The notes below the pieces were generated by a model. That model had not been told where the DNA came from. It saw only the letters and a program-made list of their open reading frames with translations, and did not search any database. This document shows positions 5,258 through 62,869 of a DNA stretch of 64,000 bases, piece after piece. The position numbers were made by a program, and so were the translations under genes. How positions within the stretch are numbered: position 1 is the stretch's first letter; every line of letters begins with the position of its first letter. The stretch covers positions 75,415 to 139,414 of the forward strand of contig CAWIGO010000007.1 of assembly GCA_963835625.1 (NCBI GenBank), written 5' to 3'. This DNA is from an uncultured Verrucomicrobiae bacterium. Its GTDB lineage: Bacteria > Verrucomicrobiota > Verrucomicrobiia > Limisphaerales > UBA11358.

Positions 5258-8018
5258 TTAAAGAACGTATTCAGCGGTGGAACCGTGATTGTCAGCGTCC
5301 TGTGCGACTTTGAACCCGGCTTCTTTGCTCACGTGAATCATCGCGTGGTTGTCAGGGGGAATGTGCGCGAAAATGCGGTCGAGCTTTTCATCGCGCCCAA
5401 TTTGCACGAGACGTTTGAGCAACTCGGTGCCGAAACCCTGTTTCTGCCAACGGTCACTGATTAAAAGCGTGAATTCCGCCTCGTTCAGACCGCGCGCCTT
5501 GCTCAACCGACCCACGCCAAGAATTTCCAATTGGCCGGTTTGCGGATCCTTGCGTTCGACAACGAGCGCGATTTCGCGGTCGTAATCGTTGAAGCAAATG
5601 CGCGTCAACCGTTCGTGCGCGATGCGCTGGTCCAGTTTGAGCGGGTTGGAAAACCGGTTGATAAACACTTTCTTCGGAAAGTGTTTCGTGAAACTTCACC
5701 AGCAACGGCTCGTCTTCGGGACGGATCGGACGGACCATGACCGCCGTGCCGTTTTTCAATTTCCACGGCGCCATATATTGCGTCGGATACGGACGGATGG
5801 CGAGCCGGGGCAGTTTATCTTCCGTCGTCTTCAAGTCGTGCAAGATGACACGGGCGTCCAGCGCGACGAGGTCCTCGGCGGAGGCGAACATCGGATTGAT
5901 GTCAATTTCCTTGATCCAACGCTGTTCGGCAACGAGCTGGCTGAAGCCGACCATCAGTTTTTCCAGCGCAATGAGATCTACTGACTTGCGGCCGCGAACG
6001 CCTTTGAGCGCTTGATAAATTTTGGTCGTCTCCATCATGCGGCGGGCGAGCGTGGTGTTCAACGGAGGCAGGGCGAGGGCTTTGTCCTTGAACACTTCGA
6101 CGAGCTGGCCGCCCATGCCGAAGAGAAGCACCGGCCCGAACTGCGGGTCAATGCTGCTGCCGAGGATGATTTCGTAGCCTTCGCTCAGCTTGATCATCTT
6201 TTGCACGGTCACGCCCTGGAAGTGCTGCGCGCCGGCCTTCTCGGTGCAGGCGGTCTTGATTGCGTTGAACGCCTTGCAGACCTCGGCCTCGTCCTTCAAG
6301 TTCAACTGCACGCCGCCCACGTCGGTCTTGTGGGTGATGGTTTCGGAATAAAGCTTCAGCACCGTCGGGAAACCGATTTCCCTGGCCAGTTTGGCCGCCT
6401 GGGCTTCCGTCTTGGCAACCTTCGTGATCACCGTCGGAATATTGTAGCAGGCGAGCAATTCCTTGGATTCGGCCTCGGTGAAGATTGTGCGGCCAGCTTT
6501 CTTCACCGATTCAATCAAGGTTGCGGCCTTGGCACGGCCCGATTCGAGATCGGCGGGATGGGCGGATGGCACCGGGGTTTCGTAGAGCGCCCGGAGGTTG
6601 TCCGCGTAGCGCCACATGGAAGTGAACACTCGTGCGGCGGTGTCGGGATACAGGAAGGTCGGAATACCCGCGGCGTTGAGGCTCTGTACACCTTCGGCAA
6701 CGTCCTTGCCGCCCATCCAACTGGCGAGCACGGGCTTGCCTTCGATGTGGCCGAACGCCTTCAATTTTTCCGCAGTGCCGGTGCAGTCAGTCATCGCTTG
6801 CGGCGTCAGAATCACAAGCAAGCCGTCGCTGTTCGGGTCTCGGCCCGCAATTTCCAGCGTCTTGGCGTAAACCTCCGCGCTGGCGTCGCCGAGGACGTCA
6901 ATGGGATTGTTGTGCGACCAGGCAAAAGGAAGAATTTTATTCAGTTCTTCGATGGTGCTTTTGGATACTTCCGCCAGCGCGCCGCCAGTGGTCAGGAGCG
7001 CGTCGGTGGCGAGCACACCCGGCCCGCCGGCGTTCGTAATCATGGTCATGCGGTTGCCCCGGGGCCGGGGTTGTCGGTCCAACACTTCCGACAGGTAGAA
7101 CAGGTCGGAGATGTCGTTCACGCGCAGCACGCCGCAACGCTTGAAAGCGGCTTCAAGAACGTCGTCGCTCCCGGTCAGCGAACCGGTGTGAGAAGCGGCC
7201 GCCTTGGCGGCGCCTGCGGTGCGGCCGGGTTTGATGACGATGATCGGCTTGGTCAGCGCGACTTCGCGGGCGGCGGACAGGAACGCGCGGGCGTCGCCGA
7301 TGGTTTCCATGTAAATGACGATGCTCTTGGTGTTTGGATCGTCGCCAAGATAATAAATCAGGTCGCCCCAGCCGACATCCAGCATGGAGCCGATGGAGAT
7401 GAACGCGCTGAAGCCGACGTTTTCCTTCAGACTCCAGTCGAGAACCGCGGTGCACAGCGCGCCGCTTTGGCTGAGGAACCCGACATTGCCGGGCTTGGCA
7501 ATGGTGGCGGCGAACGTGGCGTTCAACCCGATCCCCGGCATCATGACACCGAGGCAGTTCGGGCCGACGATGCGCATCCCGCCCCGTCGCGCCTCGGCGA
7601 GAATCTGTTGTTCAAGCTTGGCGCCTTCCGCACCGGTTTCCTTGAAGCCGGCGGAAATAATGACAGCGCCCGGCACACCCGCTTCGACGCACTCATGGAT
7701 GAGGTTCGGCGCAGTTTTCGCCGGCGTGCAGATAACCGCCAGGTCCACCTTTCCCGGTACGGAGGCGATATTGGGATACGCCTTTACACCCAACACGGAG
7801 GAACGCTTCGGGTTGACCGGATAAACGACCCCGGCAAACCCGCCGCGGCCGAGGTTTTGAAACACCGTGCGTCCGACGGTGCCCGGGTTTTCCGTCGCGC
7901 CGATGACCGCGACGACTTTGGGTGCAAAAATGGAATCCAGCGGATGTTTGCGGGCCCGCAAAATGTCATGAGTGGGTTCGGAATGTTGTAAGGTCGGGCT
8001 TGTTGTTGCGGTCTGCAT
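5258..8018 (-). pseudogene. Pat-like protein acetyltransferase (NDP-forming acyl-CoA-synthetase-like domains plus a C-terminal GNAT domain) with the reading frame broken near 5660-5670
   Basis: ORF 5454-8018 carries the CoA-binding, ligase and ATP-grasp parts ([24 protein letters not shown]). It stays meaningful up to ...[12 protein letters not shown] and then becomes Arg/Pro-rich nonsense. The GNAT domain ([35 protein letters not shown]...WQKQGFGTELL) continues in the +1 frame as ORF 5258-5668. The break could be a real pseudogene, a split gene or an assembly indel. Confidence 0.7.
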
Positions 8019-38467: not shown

Positions 38468-39409
38468 TTATTTATTGGTGCTACTGAATTGATCAAATGC
38501 CGCACCAATCAATAATTCTTCACCGTCATCAATAACCTTTTTGTAGTCCATAATCGGCTTGTTTTCGTTGGGAATAGTTTCGCCTTCGGGAAGGTGCACA
38601 TAAGTATTAATTAATCCCACTGCAACTGAAGCCGATATCTCCAAAGAGCCGCATTTATTTTTAATTATTAAATGCCGCCGTCCATCCACTTGAATGCCCT
38701 CAAAAAAAACTTTAAAATCCCAATCAGCATTTTTTTGAAATTTAACTTCTGCGACATTTATTTCTCCTACATCGAGACTTATCATTGTTGGCAGGCCATG
38801 GTAGTCTGAAACAACTTTGTCAGCATTTAGCACTGCTGCATTTCCCAGTTTTCTAGTAAGTGATGTGATGGCATAATCATAATAAACTATGTTGTCTTGA
38901 TACCCAGATTGCAGAGCATTCAAATGTTTTTCACGTTGAAGTTTCGATTGAATTCTGGACGTTGTAGCTCTGCGTCTCAAATTGTCTGCCCAAGCGTTCA
39001 AATCTCCAACCTGCGAATCAACAACTTCAAATTGTCTATTGTTGTCGATGATCCGCTGCCTCAAATCTAAACTAATAAATGAATTTGTTGCTAATTCATT
39101 TAGAAGACTTTGATGCTGTCGCTGAAGAGTTGATTGGTTGGAGTTGACAGTTGAGAGCTGATTCGTCAGGTAATTGATTTGTCTTGTGAGCTCTTGTTTG
39201 TCTGATTTGGCCTGATTGTCTTTCTGAAGACTGTTGATTTGATTTAACACAAACAGTCCTAACGTCAGCCATAAAACACGTTTTCTCCAATTTTTGTGGG
39301 TAATAGTTCTACCATCATCGAAATGATATTTGAGCCGGTATTCCCACCAAATTAAAACGACCGCAAGAATGATCAGCGAAATACCGAGAATGTAGGAAAT
39401 CCAATTCAT
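38468..39409 (-). CDS. hypothetical membrane-anchored protein (AT-rich ORFan A)
   Basis: 313-aa ORF with N-terminal hydrophobic segments (ISYILGISLIILAVVLIWW, VLWLTLGLFVLNQI). These are followed by a Q/N/S/T-rich probable coiled coil and then a globular C-terminal part. I recognised no motif. My hand counts of 60-nt lines give about 25-43% G+C, against about 52-58% in the flanks. Confidence 0.55.
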   Translation of the reverse strand: MNWISYILGISLIILAVVLIWWEYRLKYHFDDGRTITHKNWRKRVLWLTLGLFVLNQINSLQKDNQAKSDKQELTRQINYLTNQLSTVNSNQSTLQRQHQSLLNELATNSFISLDLRQRIIDNNRQFEVVDSQVGDLNAWADNLRRRATTSRIQSKLQREKHLNALQSGYQDNIVYYDYAITSLTRKLGNAAVLNADKVVSDYHGLPTMISLDVGEINVAEVKFQKNADWDFKVFFEGIQVDGRRHLIIKNKCGSLEISASVAVGLINTYVHLPEGETIPNENKPIMDYKKVIDDGEELLIGAAFDQFSSTNK

Positions 39410-39461
39410 TTAACTTTTCTGCGCTTCCTTCGCCCAAGTGTCCTTGAGCGTGATGGTGCGG

Positions 39462-41219
<1,758 letters not shown>

Positions 41220-59571: not shown

Positions 59572-60747
59572 TCATGGGAACAAACTCAAAATCGCCGCTG
59601 CCGCACGTTCGCTTGCGCCCGGACCGCCGAGCTGCGAAACGATTTCCGCCAGCCGTTTCTTGATTTGAGCGCGTCGTGATTCGTTTTGCAGAAGCTCCAG
59701 TGCGGCGTGCGAAATATTTTCCGGCGTGGCGGTATTTTGGACGAATTCGGGGAAAACTTCCTCGTTCGCCAGCAGGTTCGGCATCGTGAGTGATTTCACC
59801 GTCACAATGCGTTTGCCGATTTGATAAGTGAGCCAGGAAGTTTTATAAAGTGTCACCGTCGGCACGCCAAAAAAGGCGCACTCCATCGTCACCGTGCCGG
59901 TGGAGGCGATGGCCACGTCGGCTTCGGCCAATGCCTTGGGCAGTTCACCGACTTGAATTTCCACGTCCGGTTGAAGCATGGACAGCCTGTTCGCGATGAT
60001 TTTCAAGGCTTTATTGGGCAAAACCATTTTCACACGGCTCGCTGGCAATTTTTCTTGAATCAATTTCAATGCGCCAATCATCACCGGCAAATGCCGGCGC
60101 AATTCATCGGGGCGGCTGCCGGGCAAAAGTAAAATTGTCGGGGCTGTAGCTTCGACTTTGGACTTTCCACCCTCCGTAGCAGAGCTACTGCGGAGGACGG
60201 GTGGGCTTTGGACTTTGGACTTGTCGAATCGCCCGACCATCGGATGTCCGACAAATTCCACGCGCAACTTCGGCACCCGTTTCGCATACCAGTCTTTTTC
60301 AAAAGGGAAAATGCTCAGGAGCAAATCGTAATCCGCCGCCATTAAATTTGCCCGCCCTGGTCGCGACGCCCAAACCTGCGGCGAGACAAACTGGATGATT
60401 TTCGGGTTCCATTTCGAAAAGAGATTGTTGCGGACATATCCCTTGATTGCGTGGCCGAAGCGCAGATTGAATCCGCCGAAATCCACGCCGATGAAGGCAT
60501 CCGGCTGGCGTTCAATCGCCAGCGCAAGCAGTTGGTTGAACAACCGCCGGAACTTGAAATAATTTTTCAACACATCGGACATGCCGATGACCGAGTGCTG
60601 TGTCAGGTCAAACGCCAACTCGACTCCCGCCGCCGCCATGCGTGAACCACCCGCACCAAAGAATTTTGCGTCCGGCAACTGACTATGCAGCGCGGAAACC
60701 AATTCCGCCGCGAGCAAATCACCGCTCGCCTCACCGGCGATGAGCAT
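59572..60747 (-). CDS. lpxB: lipid-A-disaccharide synthase
   Basis: The ATG at 60747 gives MLIAGEASGDLLAAEL.... The later LLPGSR..E motif is present. The track start (GTG at 60765) is also possible. It contains a composite repeat insertion at 60151-60220. Confidence 0.9.
   Translation of the reverse strand: MLIAGEASGDLLAAELVSALHSQLPDAKFFGAGGSRMAAAGVELAFDLTQHSVIGMSDVLKNYFKFRRLFNQLLALAIERQPDAFIGVDFGGFNLRFGHAIKGYVRNNLFSKWNPKIIQFVSPQVWASRPGRANLMAADYDLLLSIFPFEKDWYAKRVPKLRVEFVGHPMVGRFDKSKVQSPPVLRSSSATEGGKSKVEATAPTILLLPGSRPDELRRHLPVMIGALKLIQEKLPASRVKMVLPNKALKIIANRLSMLQPDVEIQVGELPKALAEADVAIASTGTVTMECAFFGVPTVTLYKTSWLTYQIGKRIVTVKSLTMPNLLANEEVFPEFVQNTATPENISHAALELLQNESRRAQIKKRLAEIVSQLGGPGASERAAAAILSLFP
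60151..60220. repeat. composite insertion inside lpxB: TTTGGAC heptamers on both sides of a palindromic GC-rich core
   Basis: The left side is TTCGAC TTTGGAC TTTCCAC (60151-60170). The core is CCACCC-TCCGTAGCAGAGCTACTGCGGA-GGACGGGTGG. The right side is TTTGGAC TTTGGAC (60207-60220). On the sense strand it encodes KSKVQSPPVLRSSSATEGGKSKVE. Confidence 0.85.
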
Positions 60748-60809
60748 AAATTGTTTTGGCTTCACGCTTGATTTTGTAGCGGAATTATCCTCTTCGCATG
60801 TAGATCAAC

Positions 60810-61685
60810 TCAATTGGCATATTCTCCAATATGTTGCCAAGACGGATATTTGAAAATTGGTTTTGCCCACGGGAAAACCAATTCGTTTGTGGTTGGCAAT
60901 TTATAAAAATGACATTGTCCATTAAATGCGGACATTACAAAATTCGTGTCACTAAAAAATCCATTTACCACTATTTCTTCAGGACGCCTGTAAAAAACCT
61001 GTAAGATTGGAATGTTGTTTTTTGAAACAATTTCCATTGCGTTAGAACTATAATTCCTATCCCAATCTAAAGGAATTTTGCCATCAATGTCGCTATTCAT
61101 TTGAAACACTTCCGAATTAGATTGCATCAGAAATGTTTTGGTCTGCTGTTTATAATAAAGACCAGCTCTAATATAAAGACGATGGTTTTTAAGAAATGGG
61201 TTAAAAGGTGGCCATTGCATATCATTTATGACCAAAGTTAGTGAAGGATGAATACGCCCTTGTTTCAGATCAGCTACTTGATACGTAAAATTTTGAGAGC
61301 CAAACAAGATGTGAACTTCTTTACAACCTTTTGAAAGTTCAGGAGGTTCCCAAGTTTGATTTGAGGACTGATTTTTAAAGTGTTCAAAAGTAAGCCATCC
61401 TCCAAATGAAAAAACGAGTCCAAGAAGCGCCCAAATAATTGCCAGTTTTTTTGGATATTTTTTGAACCGGCAAAACGATAACACCGCAATTGGCAATAAA
61501 GCTAAAGAGCCAAATAGGGCCCATTCCCAATGTGCTAAAATCCAAAATCCAAACCCAATAATAGTAACAATACCAGGGCCGATTTCTCCAATAGTCTTGA
61601 GAAAAGGGATTACTTTGCCAGTGGGAAGATTTTCGATGCTTCCTTTTTCAACGTCTCTCTTAAAGTTGCATTTCCCTTTTTTCAT
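60810..61685 (-). CDS. hypothetical polytopic membrane protein (AT-rich ORFan B)
   Basis: 291-aa ORF with about 3 hydrophobic segments between residues ~35 and 105, followed by a W/F/Y/N-rich soluble part. I recognised no motif. Hand counts give about 30-40% G+C. Its ATG overlaps the upstream stop as ATGA (61682-61685). Confidence 0.55.
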   Translation of the reverse strand: MKKGKCNFKRDVEKGSIENLPTGKVIPFLKTIGEIGPGIVTIIGFGFWILAHWEWALFGSLALLPIAVLSFCRFKKYPKKLAIIWALLGLVFSFGGWLTFEHFKNQSSNQTWEPPELSKGCKEVHILFGSQNFTYQVADLKQGRIHPSLTLVINDMQWPPFNPFLKNHRLYIRAGLYYKQQTKTFLMQSNSEVFQMNSDIDGKIPLDWDRNYSSNAMEIVSKNNIPILQVFYRRPEEIVVNGFFSDTNFVMSAFNGQCHFYKLPTTNELVFPWAKPIFKYPSWQHIGEYAN

Positions 61686-62713
61686 TTGCTTTGCTGAACC
61701 TGCCGCGTGATTTCAAAGGCCAGGTCGAGTGCGCGTTTGGCAGATTCGCCGCTGACCATCGGTGTTTGTTTTTCGCGGACGCAGTTGACGAAGCTTTGCA
61801 GTTCGAGTTTGAGCGGTTCGTCTTTGGCAATCGGCACCGGTTCGCGGACGATGCGTTTGCCGCTGAATTCGCTGACGATGGTGGAATTCTTGCCGACGCC
61901 GAGTTTCGCGGCCAAAACTTTTTTTAGAAGCGAGCTTTCCTCCTCACTGTCGCGGGCGATGCGATAAATGAAACCCTCCTGTGCGCGATAATCGAGCGAG
62001 ATGTAGCAGGGATTGGTCGGGCCGCTGAACACGCGGATTTTCCGCATCCGCTCCGGGCTGACGCGGCTAGCCGTGAGGTTGGCGACGCAGCCGTTGGCGA
62101 AACGCAGCCGCGTATTGGCAATGTCCTCGGACTTGCTCAAAACTGGAATGCCGACGGCGTCCACGCTCGTCACGGGCGATTTGACGAATGCCAGCACGAC
62201 ATCGAGGTCGTGAATCATCAGGTCGAGCACGACACCGATGTCGGTCGAGCGGGCAGGGTAGGGCGACAGGCGGTGTGCCTCGATGAAGCGCGGCTCGGTG
62301 GCGACCTGCTCGAGATATTTGAATACGGGATTAAATCGTTCGACGTGTCCGACTTGCAGGACGCAATTTTTTTGCCGGGCCAGTTGAATCAATTCAGCAG
62401 CTTGCGTGGTGTCGTCGGTCATCGGTTTTTCGACAAGGACGTGTTTGCCCTGCGACAATAAAGTTTTTGCCAATTCAAAATGCGTAACGGTCGGCGTGAC
62501 AATGTTCAGTGCGTCGCTGGCGGCGGCGGCTTCGGCGACGGACCTGAAAATGCGCGCGTTGTGTTTGGCGGCGATTTTGCGGGCCGTGTCGGTATTGGCG
62601 TCAAAAATTCCGGCGAATTCGATCTGCCCTGTTGTAGCGAGTTCGGCGTAAATGCGGGCATGTTCCTTGCCGAGCGAGCCGACACCGAGGACGGCCACGC
62701 GAAGTTTGTTCAT
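61682..62713 (-). CDS. Gfo/Idh/MocA-family NAD(P)-dependent oxidoreductase
   Basis: The ATG at 62713 gives MNKLRVAVLGVGSLGKEHARIY (Rossmann GxGxxG), then EKPM and an alpha/beta C-terminal domain. It is upstream of lpxB in the same transcriptional direction. Confidence 0.85.
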   Translation of the reverse strand: MNKLRVAVLGVGSLGKEHARIYAELATTGQIEFAGIFDANTDTARKIAAKHNARIFRSVAEAAAASDALNIVTPTVTHFELAKTLLSQGKHVLVEKPMTDDTTQAAELIQLARQKNCVLQVGHVERFNPVFKYLEQVATEPRFIEAHRLSPYPARSTDIGVVLDLMIHDLDVVLAFVKSPVTSVDAVGIPVLSKSEDIANTRLRFANGCVANLTASRVSPERMRKIRVFSGPTNPCYISLDYRAQEGFIYRIARDSEEESSLLKKVLAAKLGVGKNSTIVSEFSGKRIVREPVPIAKDEPLKLELQSFVNCVREKQTPMVSGESAKRALDLAFEITRQVQQSK

Positions 62714-62869
62714 GGTTGCCACAGGGCGAGTTTGCCATTGAAAACGCCTCACGCCAAGAGCGCAAAGGGCGCAAATAACGCAGGTTTCTAGCCTGTCCGT
62801 CGCCGTTGCGGTTGTTCGCTGACAGCCAGGCTGGCCGGCGTGCAGGCGAGACGCCTGCGCTACTTTATA

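Follow-up and report, generated by a model that had tools for sequence, protein, structure and literature searches.

ORF B, a gene lying between a Gfo/Idh/MocA oxidoreductase gene and lpxB, is best read, with moderate confidence, as a recently acquired accessory gene that occupies a variable slot embedded in an operon, would be expressed from that operon and probably encodes a conflict protein. The window referred to below is the whole 64,000-nucleotide stretch of DNA that was analysed. The features on which the argument rests are as follows.

38468..39409, minus strand: ORFan A, a second low-GC cargo gene (313 aa; G+C 0.38, GC3 0.36)
59572..60765, minus strand: lpxB, lipid-A-disaccharide synthase (Pfam LpxB, E 2e-79), the downstream conserved flank of the slot
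60766..60809, minus strand: 44-nt spacer separating the GTG of lpxB from the stop codon of ORF B
60810..61685, minus strand: ORF B coding sequence (291 aa; from the ORF list, composition, homologues and family alignment)
60813..61367, minus strand: C-terminal beta-rich domain, aa 107-291 (the best-matching stretch in nearly all homologues; from alignments and AF2)
61368..61577, minus strand: three predicted TM helices, aa 37-106 (AF2 helices 37-51, 53-73 and 79-106)
61578..61685, minus strand: K/R-rich N-terminal tail with a predicted cytoplasmic location, aa 1-36 (8 K/R in 36 residues; low pLDDT)
61682..61685, minus strand: ATGA stop/start overlap (TGA of the Gfo gene and ATG of ORF B)
61682..62752, minus strand: Gfo/Idh/MocA oxidoreductase (Pfam GFO_IDH_MocA, E 1e-25), the upstream conserved flank and the operon's first gene

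The ATG of ORF B (61685-61683) overlaps the TGA of the Gfo gene (61684-61682) in the sequence ...AGCAAATGAAAAAAGGG, in agreement with the overlap recorded in the first-pass annotation. The Gfo gene product resembles UDP-GlcNAc 3-dehydrogenase (GnnA-like; NCBIfam NF040723 at 203 bits, below the cut-off of 450), and the divergent gene upstream of it is plsY. On the other side, lpxB starts with the GTG at 60765, as in spacer-bearing relatives, and its N-terminus VKPKQFMLIAGE aligns with those of the relatives. lpxB had been placed about 60 nt downstream of ORF B; this is accounted for by the first in-frame ATG, which is 62 nt away, while the distance to the GTG is 44 nt. The terminator scan detected no terminator-like site in this spacer, and a weak sigma-70-like match is present in the region (60813..60784). 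The counts of promoter- and terminator-like sites around ORF B did not exceed those in shuffled sequence. The description of the gene as promoterless held in this sigma-70 scan, which is uninformative for Verrucomicrobiota.

ORF B is compositionally foreign at synonymous sites. Its G+C and GC3 are 0.361 and 0.298, respectively, against 0.54-0.58 and 0.62-0.69 in the five neighbouring genes, which bears out the earlier contrast of an AT-rich segment (about 30-40% G+C) with flanks in the mid-50s. Among about 50 mechanically called ORFs of the window, only ORF B (0.30) and ORFan A (0.36) have a GC3 below 0.46. When the ORF B protein was recoded in host codon usage, derived from six host genes, the expected G+C was 0.49 against the observed 0.36, so that amino-acid content accounts for only part of the drop. 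Composition set by amino-acid content alone, a counter-explanation that the first-pass annotation had named, is ruled out by the GC3 and the recoding.

The gene order around the site is conserved in relatives, with plsY divergent and Gfo, lpxB and HIT following one another in the opposite direction, and both Gfo and lpxB are present in 64 loci. Neither tblastn nor the profile gave a match to ORF B in any of 80 related loci or in the rest of the window, and no paralogues were detected; the gene is therefore not one conserved at this position across the order, the other counter-explanation named earlier. The closest relative (L001; 89% and 82% identity for Gfo and LpxB, respectively) has only an 85-nt spacer at the place of ORF B. 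The GC3 of 0.30, the absence from all 80 loci and this spacer together point to a foreign origin and a recent gain.

The Gfo-lpxB distance exceeds 350 nt in 24 of the 64 loci, and the content of these gaps differs. According to mechanical ORF calls, the longest ORF lies on the operon strand in 22 of the 24 gaps, and 22 are GC-poorer than the surrounding locus. Pfam identified Y1_Tnp, Eco57I/N6_Mtase (a type IIG restriction-modification enzyme), D12 methyltransferase with DUF7687/7690, EVE+HNH, HNH, GIY-YIG, HicA, DUF3368 and HEAT repeats among the cargo, and the other cargo consists of low-GC genes without an assigned family. IS200-like Y1 transposases occupy the slot in seven relatives (L005, L013, L014, L025, L026, L029 and L033), and hairpin/MITE-like spacers are present in four (L001, L011, L015 and L021). 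The question of whether lpxB directly follows the oxidoreductase in relatives thus has a mixed answer: the two genes are directly coupled in some and separated by other cargo in others.

The overlap itself is older than the insertion. The Gfo gene ends in ATGA in 28 of 78 loci; Gfo genes of relatives end in the same AGCAAATGA, and its ATG is the lpxB start in about 16 relatives, including L003, L004, L009 and L035. The possibility that the insertion created the ATGA is ruled out by this ancestral state, and the idea of a gene spliced precisely onto the end of a conserved gene had to be given up, the ATGA being the conserved Gfo end. Unrelated cargo also starts at the Gfo-stop overlap in L020 (244 aa, G+C 0.39), L079 (EVE-HNH) and L031. 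The cargo start lies within 10 nt of the Gfo stop in about 9-10 of approximately 23 occupied slots, and 10% of the co-directional gene pairs in the window have a gap of 4 nt or less.

As in hotspots flanked by core genes, the Gfo|lpxB junction has conserved flanks and a differing content that includes known defence genes. It is not more variable than the neighbouring junctions: gaps longer than 350 nt were found in 22%, 38% and 40% of loci at plsY|Gfo, Gfo|lpxB and lpxB|HIT, respectively. A uniquely targeted site is ruled out by this comparison. Since the adjacent junctions are about equally variable, "slot" may mean any tolerated intergenic site in the clade.

The window holds a second case. 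The ATG of ORFan A directly abuts the ancestral-frame glnS stop (TAAATG; TAA at 39410-39412), and the recurrence pointed out in the first-pass annotation is therefore real. glnS has a putative frameshift within 39472-39500. ORFan A had no family match in Pfam, NCBIfam, PHROGs or PADLOC. A relationship between the two proteins was ruled out (blastp best E 0.15, no family-profile match), as had been judged by eye. In relatives, the post-glnS slot contains AIPR, RelA_SpoT or DUF6988 genes. The content of both slots varies among relatives; it consists of single, co-oriented genes poor in G+C, and several of these belong to recognised defence or toxin types.

The position of these starts could also be a product of mechanism and not of selection, with ORF B as the passenger of a site-specific mobile system, either IS200/RAYT acting on REP-like hairpins or an integron-like cassette. 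We regard this as unlikely. It would fit the transposases in the same slot of seven relatives, the hairpin spacers of four others, the unrelated cargo starting exactly at NTGA in at least four lineages, the closeness of so many cargo starts to the Gfo stop compared with the gene pairs of the window, the abutment of a stop codon by ORFan A as well, and a TGAA at each end of the insert that contains ORF B. However, a repeat of only 4 nt has no significance, and lpxB also starts with GTGAA where relatives have other spacers. ORF B has no terminal or subterminal inverted repeats and no direct repeats beyond chance, no transposase or integrase adjoins it, a typical attC site is longer than the 44-nt 3' spacer, and other junctions nearby are equally variable.

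The architecture of the ORF B protein agreed with the earlier description of a 291-aa protein with about three TM segments and a C-terminal domain rich in W, F, Y and N. AF2 gave three helices, and the charge distribution is in agreement with them. No start codon other than the ATG of the tail precedes the first TM helix, and the low pLDDT of aa 1-36 in the AF2 model is consistent with disorder. Five K/R residues are located in loop 73-81, which fits the positive-inside rule. The predicted topology is N-in and C-out, which would place the C-terminal domain on the extracytoplasmic, periplasm-facing side; a family member with the order TIR-TM-domain (P0056) supports the outside placement.

The sum of W, F, Y and N in the C-terminal domain is 23.8%, compared with 9.6-11.6% in Gfo and LpxB. 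Its motifs are WxPPELPxGC, NNRLYV, LPxxWDRNxxSNAFEIV, PVLQVxY and, at the C-terminus, KPIFKYPSWxHxGEYA. The domain-only AF2 model had a pLDDT of 86.3 and a pTM of 0.83. Foldseek searches of PDB and BFVD (full-length model) and of PDB (domain-only model) yielded nothing at E<0.07, and the best query-normalised TM-score for the ORF B models in PDB and BFVD was at most about 0.2. The recurrent weak matches, namely the beta-domains of SdgB/TarM/Asp1 and a polymorphic-toxin/immunity complex (8owu) that overlapped over 52 residues, were rejected as noise. A sequence-profile search of the PDB with ORF B also gave no match.

By its sequence, ORF B belongs to a large family of membrane-anchored proteins, undescribed so far. 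An exhaustive HMMER search of 1.84 billion representatives, clustered at 50% identity, yielded 575 cluster representatives at E<=1e-3, of which 118 reach E<=1e-10, and the label "ORFan" was accordingly dropped. The closest homologue in this search is only 35-40% identical, so that purifying selection on ORF B is not measurable. A word-indexed homology search of 5.8 billion sequences returned only ORF B itself, in one copy; the same type of search with the family alignment as query returned only 9 proteins, all unnamed, and the contig index contained no record of the exact ORF B sequence. Word-indexed homology searches can mislabel such genes as orphans. Nothing significant was found for ORF B in Pfam, NCBIfam, PHROG or PADLOC; the best sub-threshold matches were DUF4131 (E 0.046), SLATT_1 (E 0.44) and phrog_10911 (E 0.25), with none from PADLOC. 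All family members that were looked up are metagenomic or environmental "hypothetical proteins".

The part shared by the family is a C-terminal, beta-rich domain of about 180 aa. ORF B scores 230 bits against the family profile and keeps the invariant residues E218, Q229, Y232, F278, Y280 and P281. The domain forms the C-terminal end in 123 of 162 proteins, is tandemly duplicated in some members, and is preceded by 0-4 hydrophobic segments, mostly 1-3. Pfam gave no match in 148 of the 150 members scanned. TIR_2 (E 5e-10) was found in P0056 alone among the 150, a weak Wzy_C (O-antigen ligase) match occurs in one member, and Pfam detected no TIR domain in ORF B. Family members are GC-poorer than their own contig in 37 of 40 loci (mean difference 7.8 points). 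They are solitary, standing between housekeeping genes (his, folD, DAHP synthase, recG and dnaE, and not LPS genes) or adjoining IS1595 transposases (3) and integrases (2). Neither a consistent partner nor a clear defence enrichment was found among their neighbours, which are mostly housekeeping genes, and Pfam gave no match for the neighbours of 401 aa (L099), 396 aa (L132), 317 aa (L137) and 261 aa (L125). One member is encoded on an IMG/VR viral contig, and tblastn found no match among INPHARED phages or PLSDB plasmids.

The location of ORF B between a GnnA-like dehydrogenase and lpxB, its membrane anchor with a predicted periplasm-facing domain and the Wzy_C match in one family member could be taken as signs of a housekeeping-type envelope factor recruited into the lipid A operon, for example in lipid A/LPS assembly or modification. 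We consider such a role improbable, more so than a mobile-element origin, since none of the 80 relatives with this operon has ORF B, its position is taken elsewhere by restriction enzymes, nucleases, toxins and transposases, the family occurs beside unrelated housekeeping genes, and the composition of ORF B is foreign. An ancient resident repeatedly lost in relatives, or a non-functional remnant or spurious ORF, is largely refuted and very improbable: it would suit the single exact copy among 5.8 billion sequences and the distance of the closest homologue (35-40% identity), but a gene long resident in a 55% G+C genome would not have a GC3 of 0.30, relatives have other genes or a directly coupled junction at the site, the frame is intact over 291 codons of stop-rich AT DNA (the chance of an 876-nt open frame in 36% G+C DNA is about 1e-9 by our own estimate from base frequencies), all of the invariant family residues are kept, and the domain model has a pLDDT of 86.

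The preferred reading of ORF B as acquired cargo would run as follows. The ancestral state was an lpxB whose start codon is the ATG overlapping the Gfo stop, and in many relatives this junction has been opened and filled with differing genes that are GC-poor and co-oriented (for transposases, restriction enzymes and nucleases, toxins and others). ORF B would be a recent acquisition and no native part of the lipid A operon. In the source genome, the incoming gene would begin at the former lpxB ATG and reuse the coupled start, while lpxB would have been displaced 44 nt downstream onto a GTG start. The use of the old lpxB ATG suggests transcription from the operon promoter together with termination-reinitiation coupling to Gfo, and we infer from the junction that ORF B may be expressed through the host operon by translational coupling. 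The product would be anchored by three TM helices, with a K/R-rich tail in the cytoplasm and a beta-rich domain of about 185 aa facing the periplasm. It is probably an envelope-level conflict protein, which is the least certain step; it may bind or block an incoming agent from outside, leading to phage exclusion, toxin immunity or sensing. The observations counted for a conflict role are the one TIR-TM-domain fusion and the defence-type genes in both slots of relatives. The defence link for the family is weak, with a TIR in 1 of 150 members and no PADLOC match for ORF B.

A wider proposal can be put forward only tentatively, and we hold it to be doubtful. Limisphaerales-type Verrucomicrobiota might possess operon-embedded "tail-gate" slots that capture promoterless, leaderless single genes, many of them for defence, at stop/start junctions, with host-coupled expression and swapping between strains; the ORF B domain might then represent a novel extracytoplasmic fold for sensing or blocking an external threat such as phage or toxin, wired in some members to a cytoplasmic TIR effector. 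If true, tail-gate capture would be a mode of accessory-gene acquisition distinct from islands, integrons and prophages. In this clade, which is uncultured and ecologically abundant in soil and peat, genes for accessory functions and defence can be single, leaderless and located at the ends of essential genes and not in large islands. If this is general, such genes would be missed by island-based defence-discovery pipelines, and conserved stop/start junctions would be cheap markers for finding new defence genes. Apart from this proposal, ORF B offers a way into a sizeable unnamed family of at least 575 clusters, all environmental, with a confidently predicted beta domain that has no relative in PDB or BFVD.

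Several known systems share features with this arrangement. Integron gene cassettes and CALINs are promoterless foreign single genes in one orientation, expressed from an upstream host promoter, and each cassette ends on its 3' side in an attC site, an imperfect inverted repeat about 57-141 nt long. ORF B is similarly promoterless, single, compositionally foreign and in operon orientation, whereas the repeat search detected no attC-like imperfect inverted repeat downstream of it, no attI, integrase or array adjoins it in the window, and its insertion point is a protein-coding stop/start junction. The sole local hairpin (13+13 nt) is within the coding region at 60855-60883, the 3' spacer being 44 nt, and Rfam gave only a spurious Xist match in the ORF B region.

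REP/RAYT (IS200-like Y1) elements are found in the same Gfo|lpxB slot of at least seven relatives, with hairpin spacers in others, while ORF B has no Y1 transposase domain, flanking hairpins or REP-like repeats. Prophage moron and Sie proteins are small AT-rich accessory gene products with an N-terminal membrane anchor and an outward-facing domain. ORF B resembles them in its AT-richness, N-terminal anchor and predicted outward domain, and one family member is on a predicted viral contig; in contrast to them, it is not in a prophage, and it showed no sequence or structure match to known Sie proteins or BFVD structures.

Defence hotspots flanked by core genes have been described as cDHS1 and cDHS2 of Pseudomonas aeruginosa (PMC10250203) and as integration hotspots of E. 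coli (PMC10121019). They comprise 1-224 kb (median 26 kb) and contain whole systems, which in E. coli are mostly carried by mobile elements (PMC10250203, PMC10121019), and Abi is among their known defence genes (PMC10250203, PMC10121019). Like these hotspots, the Gfo|lpxB slot is fixed between conserved genes, its content varies and deviates in G+C, and it mixes defence genes (restriction-modification, nucleases and toxins) with genes of unassigned function. Unlike them, the slots described here are 0.4-3 kb in length and usually hold a single gene, they are situated within an operon or at its tail with co-oriented cargo, and this cargo, without a leader of its own, often starts at or within a few nucleotides of the upstream stop codon.

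The reported feature is a real gene on the minus strand, a 291-codon ORF (ORF B) whose ATG (61685-61683) overlaps the TGA (61684-61682) of the upstream Gfo/Idh/MocA gene (Gfo) in the sequence AGCAAATGAAAAAAGGG, as the first-pass annotation had described. The distance from the ORF B stop to the lpxB GTG is 44 nt, and the LpxB N-terminus VKPKQFMLIAGE agrees with those of relatives. The operon on the minus strand runs Gfo, ORF B, lpxB, HIT, phoH and ybeY, with plsY located upstream of Gfo and divergent. Gfo resembles UDP-GlcNAc 3-dehydrogenase (GnnA type), the function of which is summarised in PMC5644692. Because the score of Gfo is under the NCBIfam cut-off, this putative identity is a lead only.

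Features of the window considered in this part.
60810..61685, minus strand, ORF B, 291-codon ORF
60765 (GTG start), minus strand, lpxB, Pfam LpxB (E 2e-79)
38468..39409, minus strand, ORFan A, a second low-GC single gene after glnS, 313 aa, GC3 0.36

The G+C content drops from about 0.55 to 0.33-0.39 within bounds that are exactly those of ORF B, and GC3 is 0.298 in ORF B versus 0.62-0.69 in five neighbouring genes. Recoding of the protein with host codon usage gave an expected G+C of 0.49 versus 0.36 observed, so the anomaly is largely synonymous and amino-acid content alone does not explain it. ORF B is foreign in composition, as first proposed. ORF B and the 38.4-39.6 kb region (ORFan A) are the only two regions below 43% G+C in the whole window, and the same two genes are the only ones with GC3 below 0.46 among about 50 mechanically called ORFs. 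Their products are unrelated, in agreement with the lack of mutual similarity noted at first reading.

Among 5.8 billion proteins, a word-indexed search matched only ORF B itself. When 1.84 billion cluster representatives were scanned exhaustively with HMMER, 575 proteins reached E<=1e-3 and 118 of them E<=1e-10; the best foreign match was at 4e-38 and 35% identity, and the label of ORFan has to be withdrawn. The conserved portion corresponds to residues ~107-291 and includes the motifs WxPPELPxGC, NNRLYV, LPxxWDRNxxSNAFEIV and PVLQVxYxxP, and KPIFKYPSWxHxGEYA at the C-terminus. E218 is invariant among 150 sequences, and ORF B retains all of the invariant positions. ORF B is an intact member of a large undescribed family. 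Ten relatives were looked up; they and the other proteins in their clusters come only from metagenomes (JGI, ENA, Logan) and carry either no name or "hypothetical protein". ORF B gave no match to Pfam, NCBIfam, PHROG or PADLOC models, and 148 of 150 family members had no match at all in a Pfam scan.

AlphaFold2 with the family alignment predicted helices at residues 37-51, 53-73 and 79-106 followed by an all-beta domain, and the domain-only model had a pLDDT of 86.3 and a pTM of 0.83. Foldseek found nothing significant in the PDB (best E 0.13-0.17, query-normalised TM-score <=0.21) or among the BFVD viral structures (best E 0.07, query-normalised TM-score <=0.18), and a sequence-profile search of the PDB was empty. 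The positive-inside rule predicts an N-in, C-out topology because eight K/R residues lie in the N-terminal tail and five in the loop 73-81. The hydrophobic segments that precede the domain range from 0 to 4 in 162 family proteins (37, 42, 41, 41 and 1 proteins with 0, 1, 2, 3 and 4 segments, respectively). At most 6 residues separate the end of the domain from the C-terminus in 123 of these proteins, and 26 have two or three separate domain matches, some being clear tandem duplications. The metagenomic member P0056 (646 aa) consists of an N-terminal region, a TIR_2 domain (aa 210-330, E 5e-10), a single TM helix at about aa 355-375 and an ORF B-type domain. This layout would independently place the domain outside the cytoplasm and hints at a transmembrane sensor-effector arrangement.

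A metagenome scan for the family returned 54 loci. Forty of them have flanks longer than 1.5 kb, and in 37 of those the family gene has a lower G+C than the contig around it, by a mean of 7.8 points, GC3 included. The members are solitary and lie between housekeeping genes (e.g., hisA, folD, DAHP synthase, recG, dnaE and proBA); others adjoin IS1595 transposases (3 loci), integrases (2) or an ORF6N antirepressor-like gene. One is on a predicted viral contig of 42.7 kb, IMG/VR UViG_3300014204_000316 (L099, identical to L142), flanked by a DNA methyltransferase-like gene and a DnaB-type helicase. Searches of INPHARED phages and PLSDB plasmids gave no match, and PADLOC on 99 neighbours of family members showed no clear defence enrichment. 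This profile is that of a frequently transferred accessory gene and does not fit an operon partner of lipid A genes. A mechanically called ORF of roughly 400 aa without a Pfam match directly follows the family gene in L099 and L132.

Using the Gfo protein as the query, we collected 80 loci from Verrucomicrobiota MAGs (70-89% identical), labelled mostly Limisphaerales, Pedosphaera or generic Verrucomicrobiota and many of them from peat and soil. Nine (L010, L019, L022, L028, L037, L049, L055, L056, L060) carry a Verrucomicrobiota-type operon under ill-fitting titles (Bifidobacteriaceae, Bifidobacterium, Akkermansia muciniphila, Candidatus Acidoferrum, Angelobacter, Sulfotelmatobacter) and are probably mislabelled bins. 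No relative of ORF B was found in any of the 80 loci. In the closest one, L001 (Gfo 89%, LpxB 82%, HIT 93%), Gfo and lpxB are spaced by 85 nt.

The ATGA had been read as the product of a precise splice, and here the relatives point elsewhere. Among 78 loci with a complete Gfo end, Gfo terminates in ATGA in 28, GTGA in 4 and TTGA in 7, and such an NTGA overlap is the lpxB start in about 16. In L003, L004, L009 and L035, Gfo ends in ...QQSK* with the sequence AGCAAATGA, of which the embedded ATG starts lpxB (ATGAACCCAAAA, MNPK...). Because relatives end Gfo in NTGA and start lpxB there, the ATGA is the ancestral lpxB coupling site, taken over by ORF B, whose low-GC DNA begins immediately past it; by this comparison the start codon pre-dates ORF B.

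The position is also variable across the clade: in 24 of 64 loci, 0.4-3.1 kb of sequence separates the two genes, and its content differs. The longest ORF has the orientation of the operon in 22 of the 24 gaps, and in 22 the G+C is below that of the locus itself. Several unknowns are found in addition to the cargo listed below. Unrelated cargo also starts at the NTGA overlap in L020, L079 (EVE-HNH) and L031. The L020 gene (244 aa, G+C 0.39, GC3 0.35) starts at the Gfo ATGA. Expansion was seen at 22% of plsY-Gfo, 38% of Gfo-lpxB and 40% of lpxB-HIT junctions, and the Gfo-lpxB slot is not uniquely hot.

Cargo of the Gfo-lpxB and glnS slots in related loci.
Gfo-lpxB: IS200-like Y1 transposase, 150 aa, RAYT-like (MAHTFTHLLTHIIFSTKDR...); L005, L013, L014, L025, L026, L029, L033
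Gfo-lpxB: Eco57I-type IIG restriction-modification enzyme; L034
Gfo-lpxB: D12 methyltransferase with DUF7687/DUF7690; L047
Gfo-lpxB: EVE-HNH; L062, L079
Gfo-lpxB: HNH; L012
Gfo-lpxB: GIY-YIG; L014
Gfo-lpxB: HicA; L018
Gfo-lpxB: DUF3368 protein and low-GC HEAT-repeat protein; L006
Gfo-lpxB: shared 150-198-aa protein (MNFHRPSKSPRDPLNR...) without Pfam match; L007, L028
Gfo-lpxB: unnamed low-GC family without Pfam match, motif …KYGIVAM[IV]DALGVRNAT[IV]E…; L020 (7053-7787), L018 (7010-7615)
glnS: 254-aa unknown, overlap TAATG
glnS: 75-aa ORF, G+C 0.55; L144
glnS: AIPR (PF10592; Abi-type protein), start 142 nt past the glnS stop
glnS: DUF6988 protein, start 15 nt past the glnS stop
glnS: RelA_SpoT-domain protein, start 3 nt past the glnS stop

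In L001 (5274-5358), L011, L015 and L021, the Gfo-lpxB spacer is 80-270 nt long and bounded by terminal inverted repeats (GGAGACGACGTGAGGAGTCTC...GAGACTCCTCACGTCGTCTCC in L015; TTAACGCAGAGGCGCAGAGA...TCTGCGCCTCTGCGTTAA in L021 and L011); these spacers look like REP or MITE-type elements. A 30-codon ORF in L001 (5268-5361) opens at the Gfo ATGA and closes on a stop that overlaps the lpxB GTG (GTGA), and one of roughly 60 codons in L010 (about 7033-7216) starts 4 nt past the Gfo stop and also ends overlapping the lpxB GTG. These ORFs may keep translational coupling across the spacer, or may be coincidental.

ORF B bears no signature of a mobile element. No inverted or direct repeats beyond chance flank it, its region holds no real RNA family, and promoter-like and terminator-like sites are no commoner than in shuffled sequence. 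TGAA is present at either end of the insert, but a match of four nucleotides carries no significance, and lpxB likewise starts with GTGAA in relatives whose spacers differ. Straddling the ORF B stop, a short way upstream of lpxB, is a weak sigma-70-like match (TTGAGT-18-GATAAT, 60813..60784, minus strand), and a 13+13-nt hairpin (60855-60883, minus strand; 92% complementary, 3-nt loop) lies within ORF B at its 3' end; neither exceeds what chance would give.

The recurrence of a low-GC gene after a conserved gene is real and is seen across the clade. In six relatives with GlnRS 85-90% identical (L143-L149, cargo at about 5815-7232 in each locus), five different genes follow glnS, co-oriented and mostly GC-poor. 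The four larger ones have G+C of 0.40-0.46 versus 0.51-0.57 for their loci, the 75-aa ORF of L144 being the exception, and for four of the five the start is no more than 15 nt past the glnS stop. For comparison, 3 of 30 (10%) co-directional pairs in the window have a gap of 4 nt or less. The glnS 3' position is a second variable slot. In the window, the main glnS ORF ends at 39462, 52 nt upstream of ORFan A, and encodes 585 aa versus 597-641 aa in relatives. The canonical GlnRS C-terminus (...NRTITLRDTWAKEAQKS* in relatives) is encoded in frame +1 beyond four tandem (T)CTCAAC units (39472-39500), and within 39410-39505 (minus strand) glnS accordingly appears frameshifted, either as a real truncation or through a sequencing or assembly error at the short repeat. 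The ATG of ORFan A abuts the ancestral glnS stop with zero spacer (TAAATG).

Of the earlier interpretation, the foreign gene and its recurrence stand, while the orphan status and the ATGA made by precise splicing do not. ORF B itself is nothing unusual: it is an accessory gene that was acquired into a variable slot. Overlapping stop/start codons are known to couple translation, and ORF B would be transcribed along with the operon and translated via termination-reinitiation at the ATGA. Its domain would face the periplasm and might take part in conflict at the envelope, by phage exclusion, toxin immunity or sensing. Such a conflict role is doubtful, its basis being the slot company, a single TIR fusion, one viral contig and accessory behaviour. 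Two aspects merit follow-up. One is that the family, which has no name, contains a confidently predicted domain for which neither PDB nor BFVD offers a relative; the other is that the clade as a whole tends to park lone foreign genes at the stop/start junctions of conserved operons.

Like integron cassettes, the slot cargo is promoterless, but neither attC nor an integrase was seen here. The hotspots of E. coli lie for the most part on mobile elements (PMC10121019). Compared with defence hotspots, the slots described here are miniature and operon-embedded, and their cargo is single, co-oriented and often leaderless.
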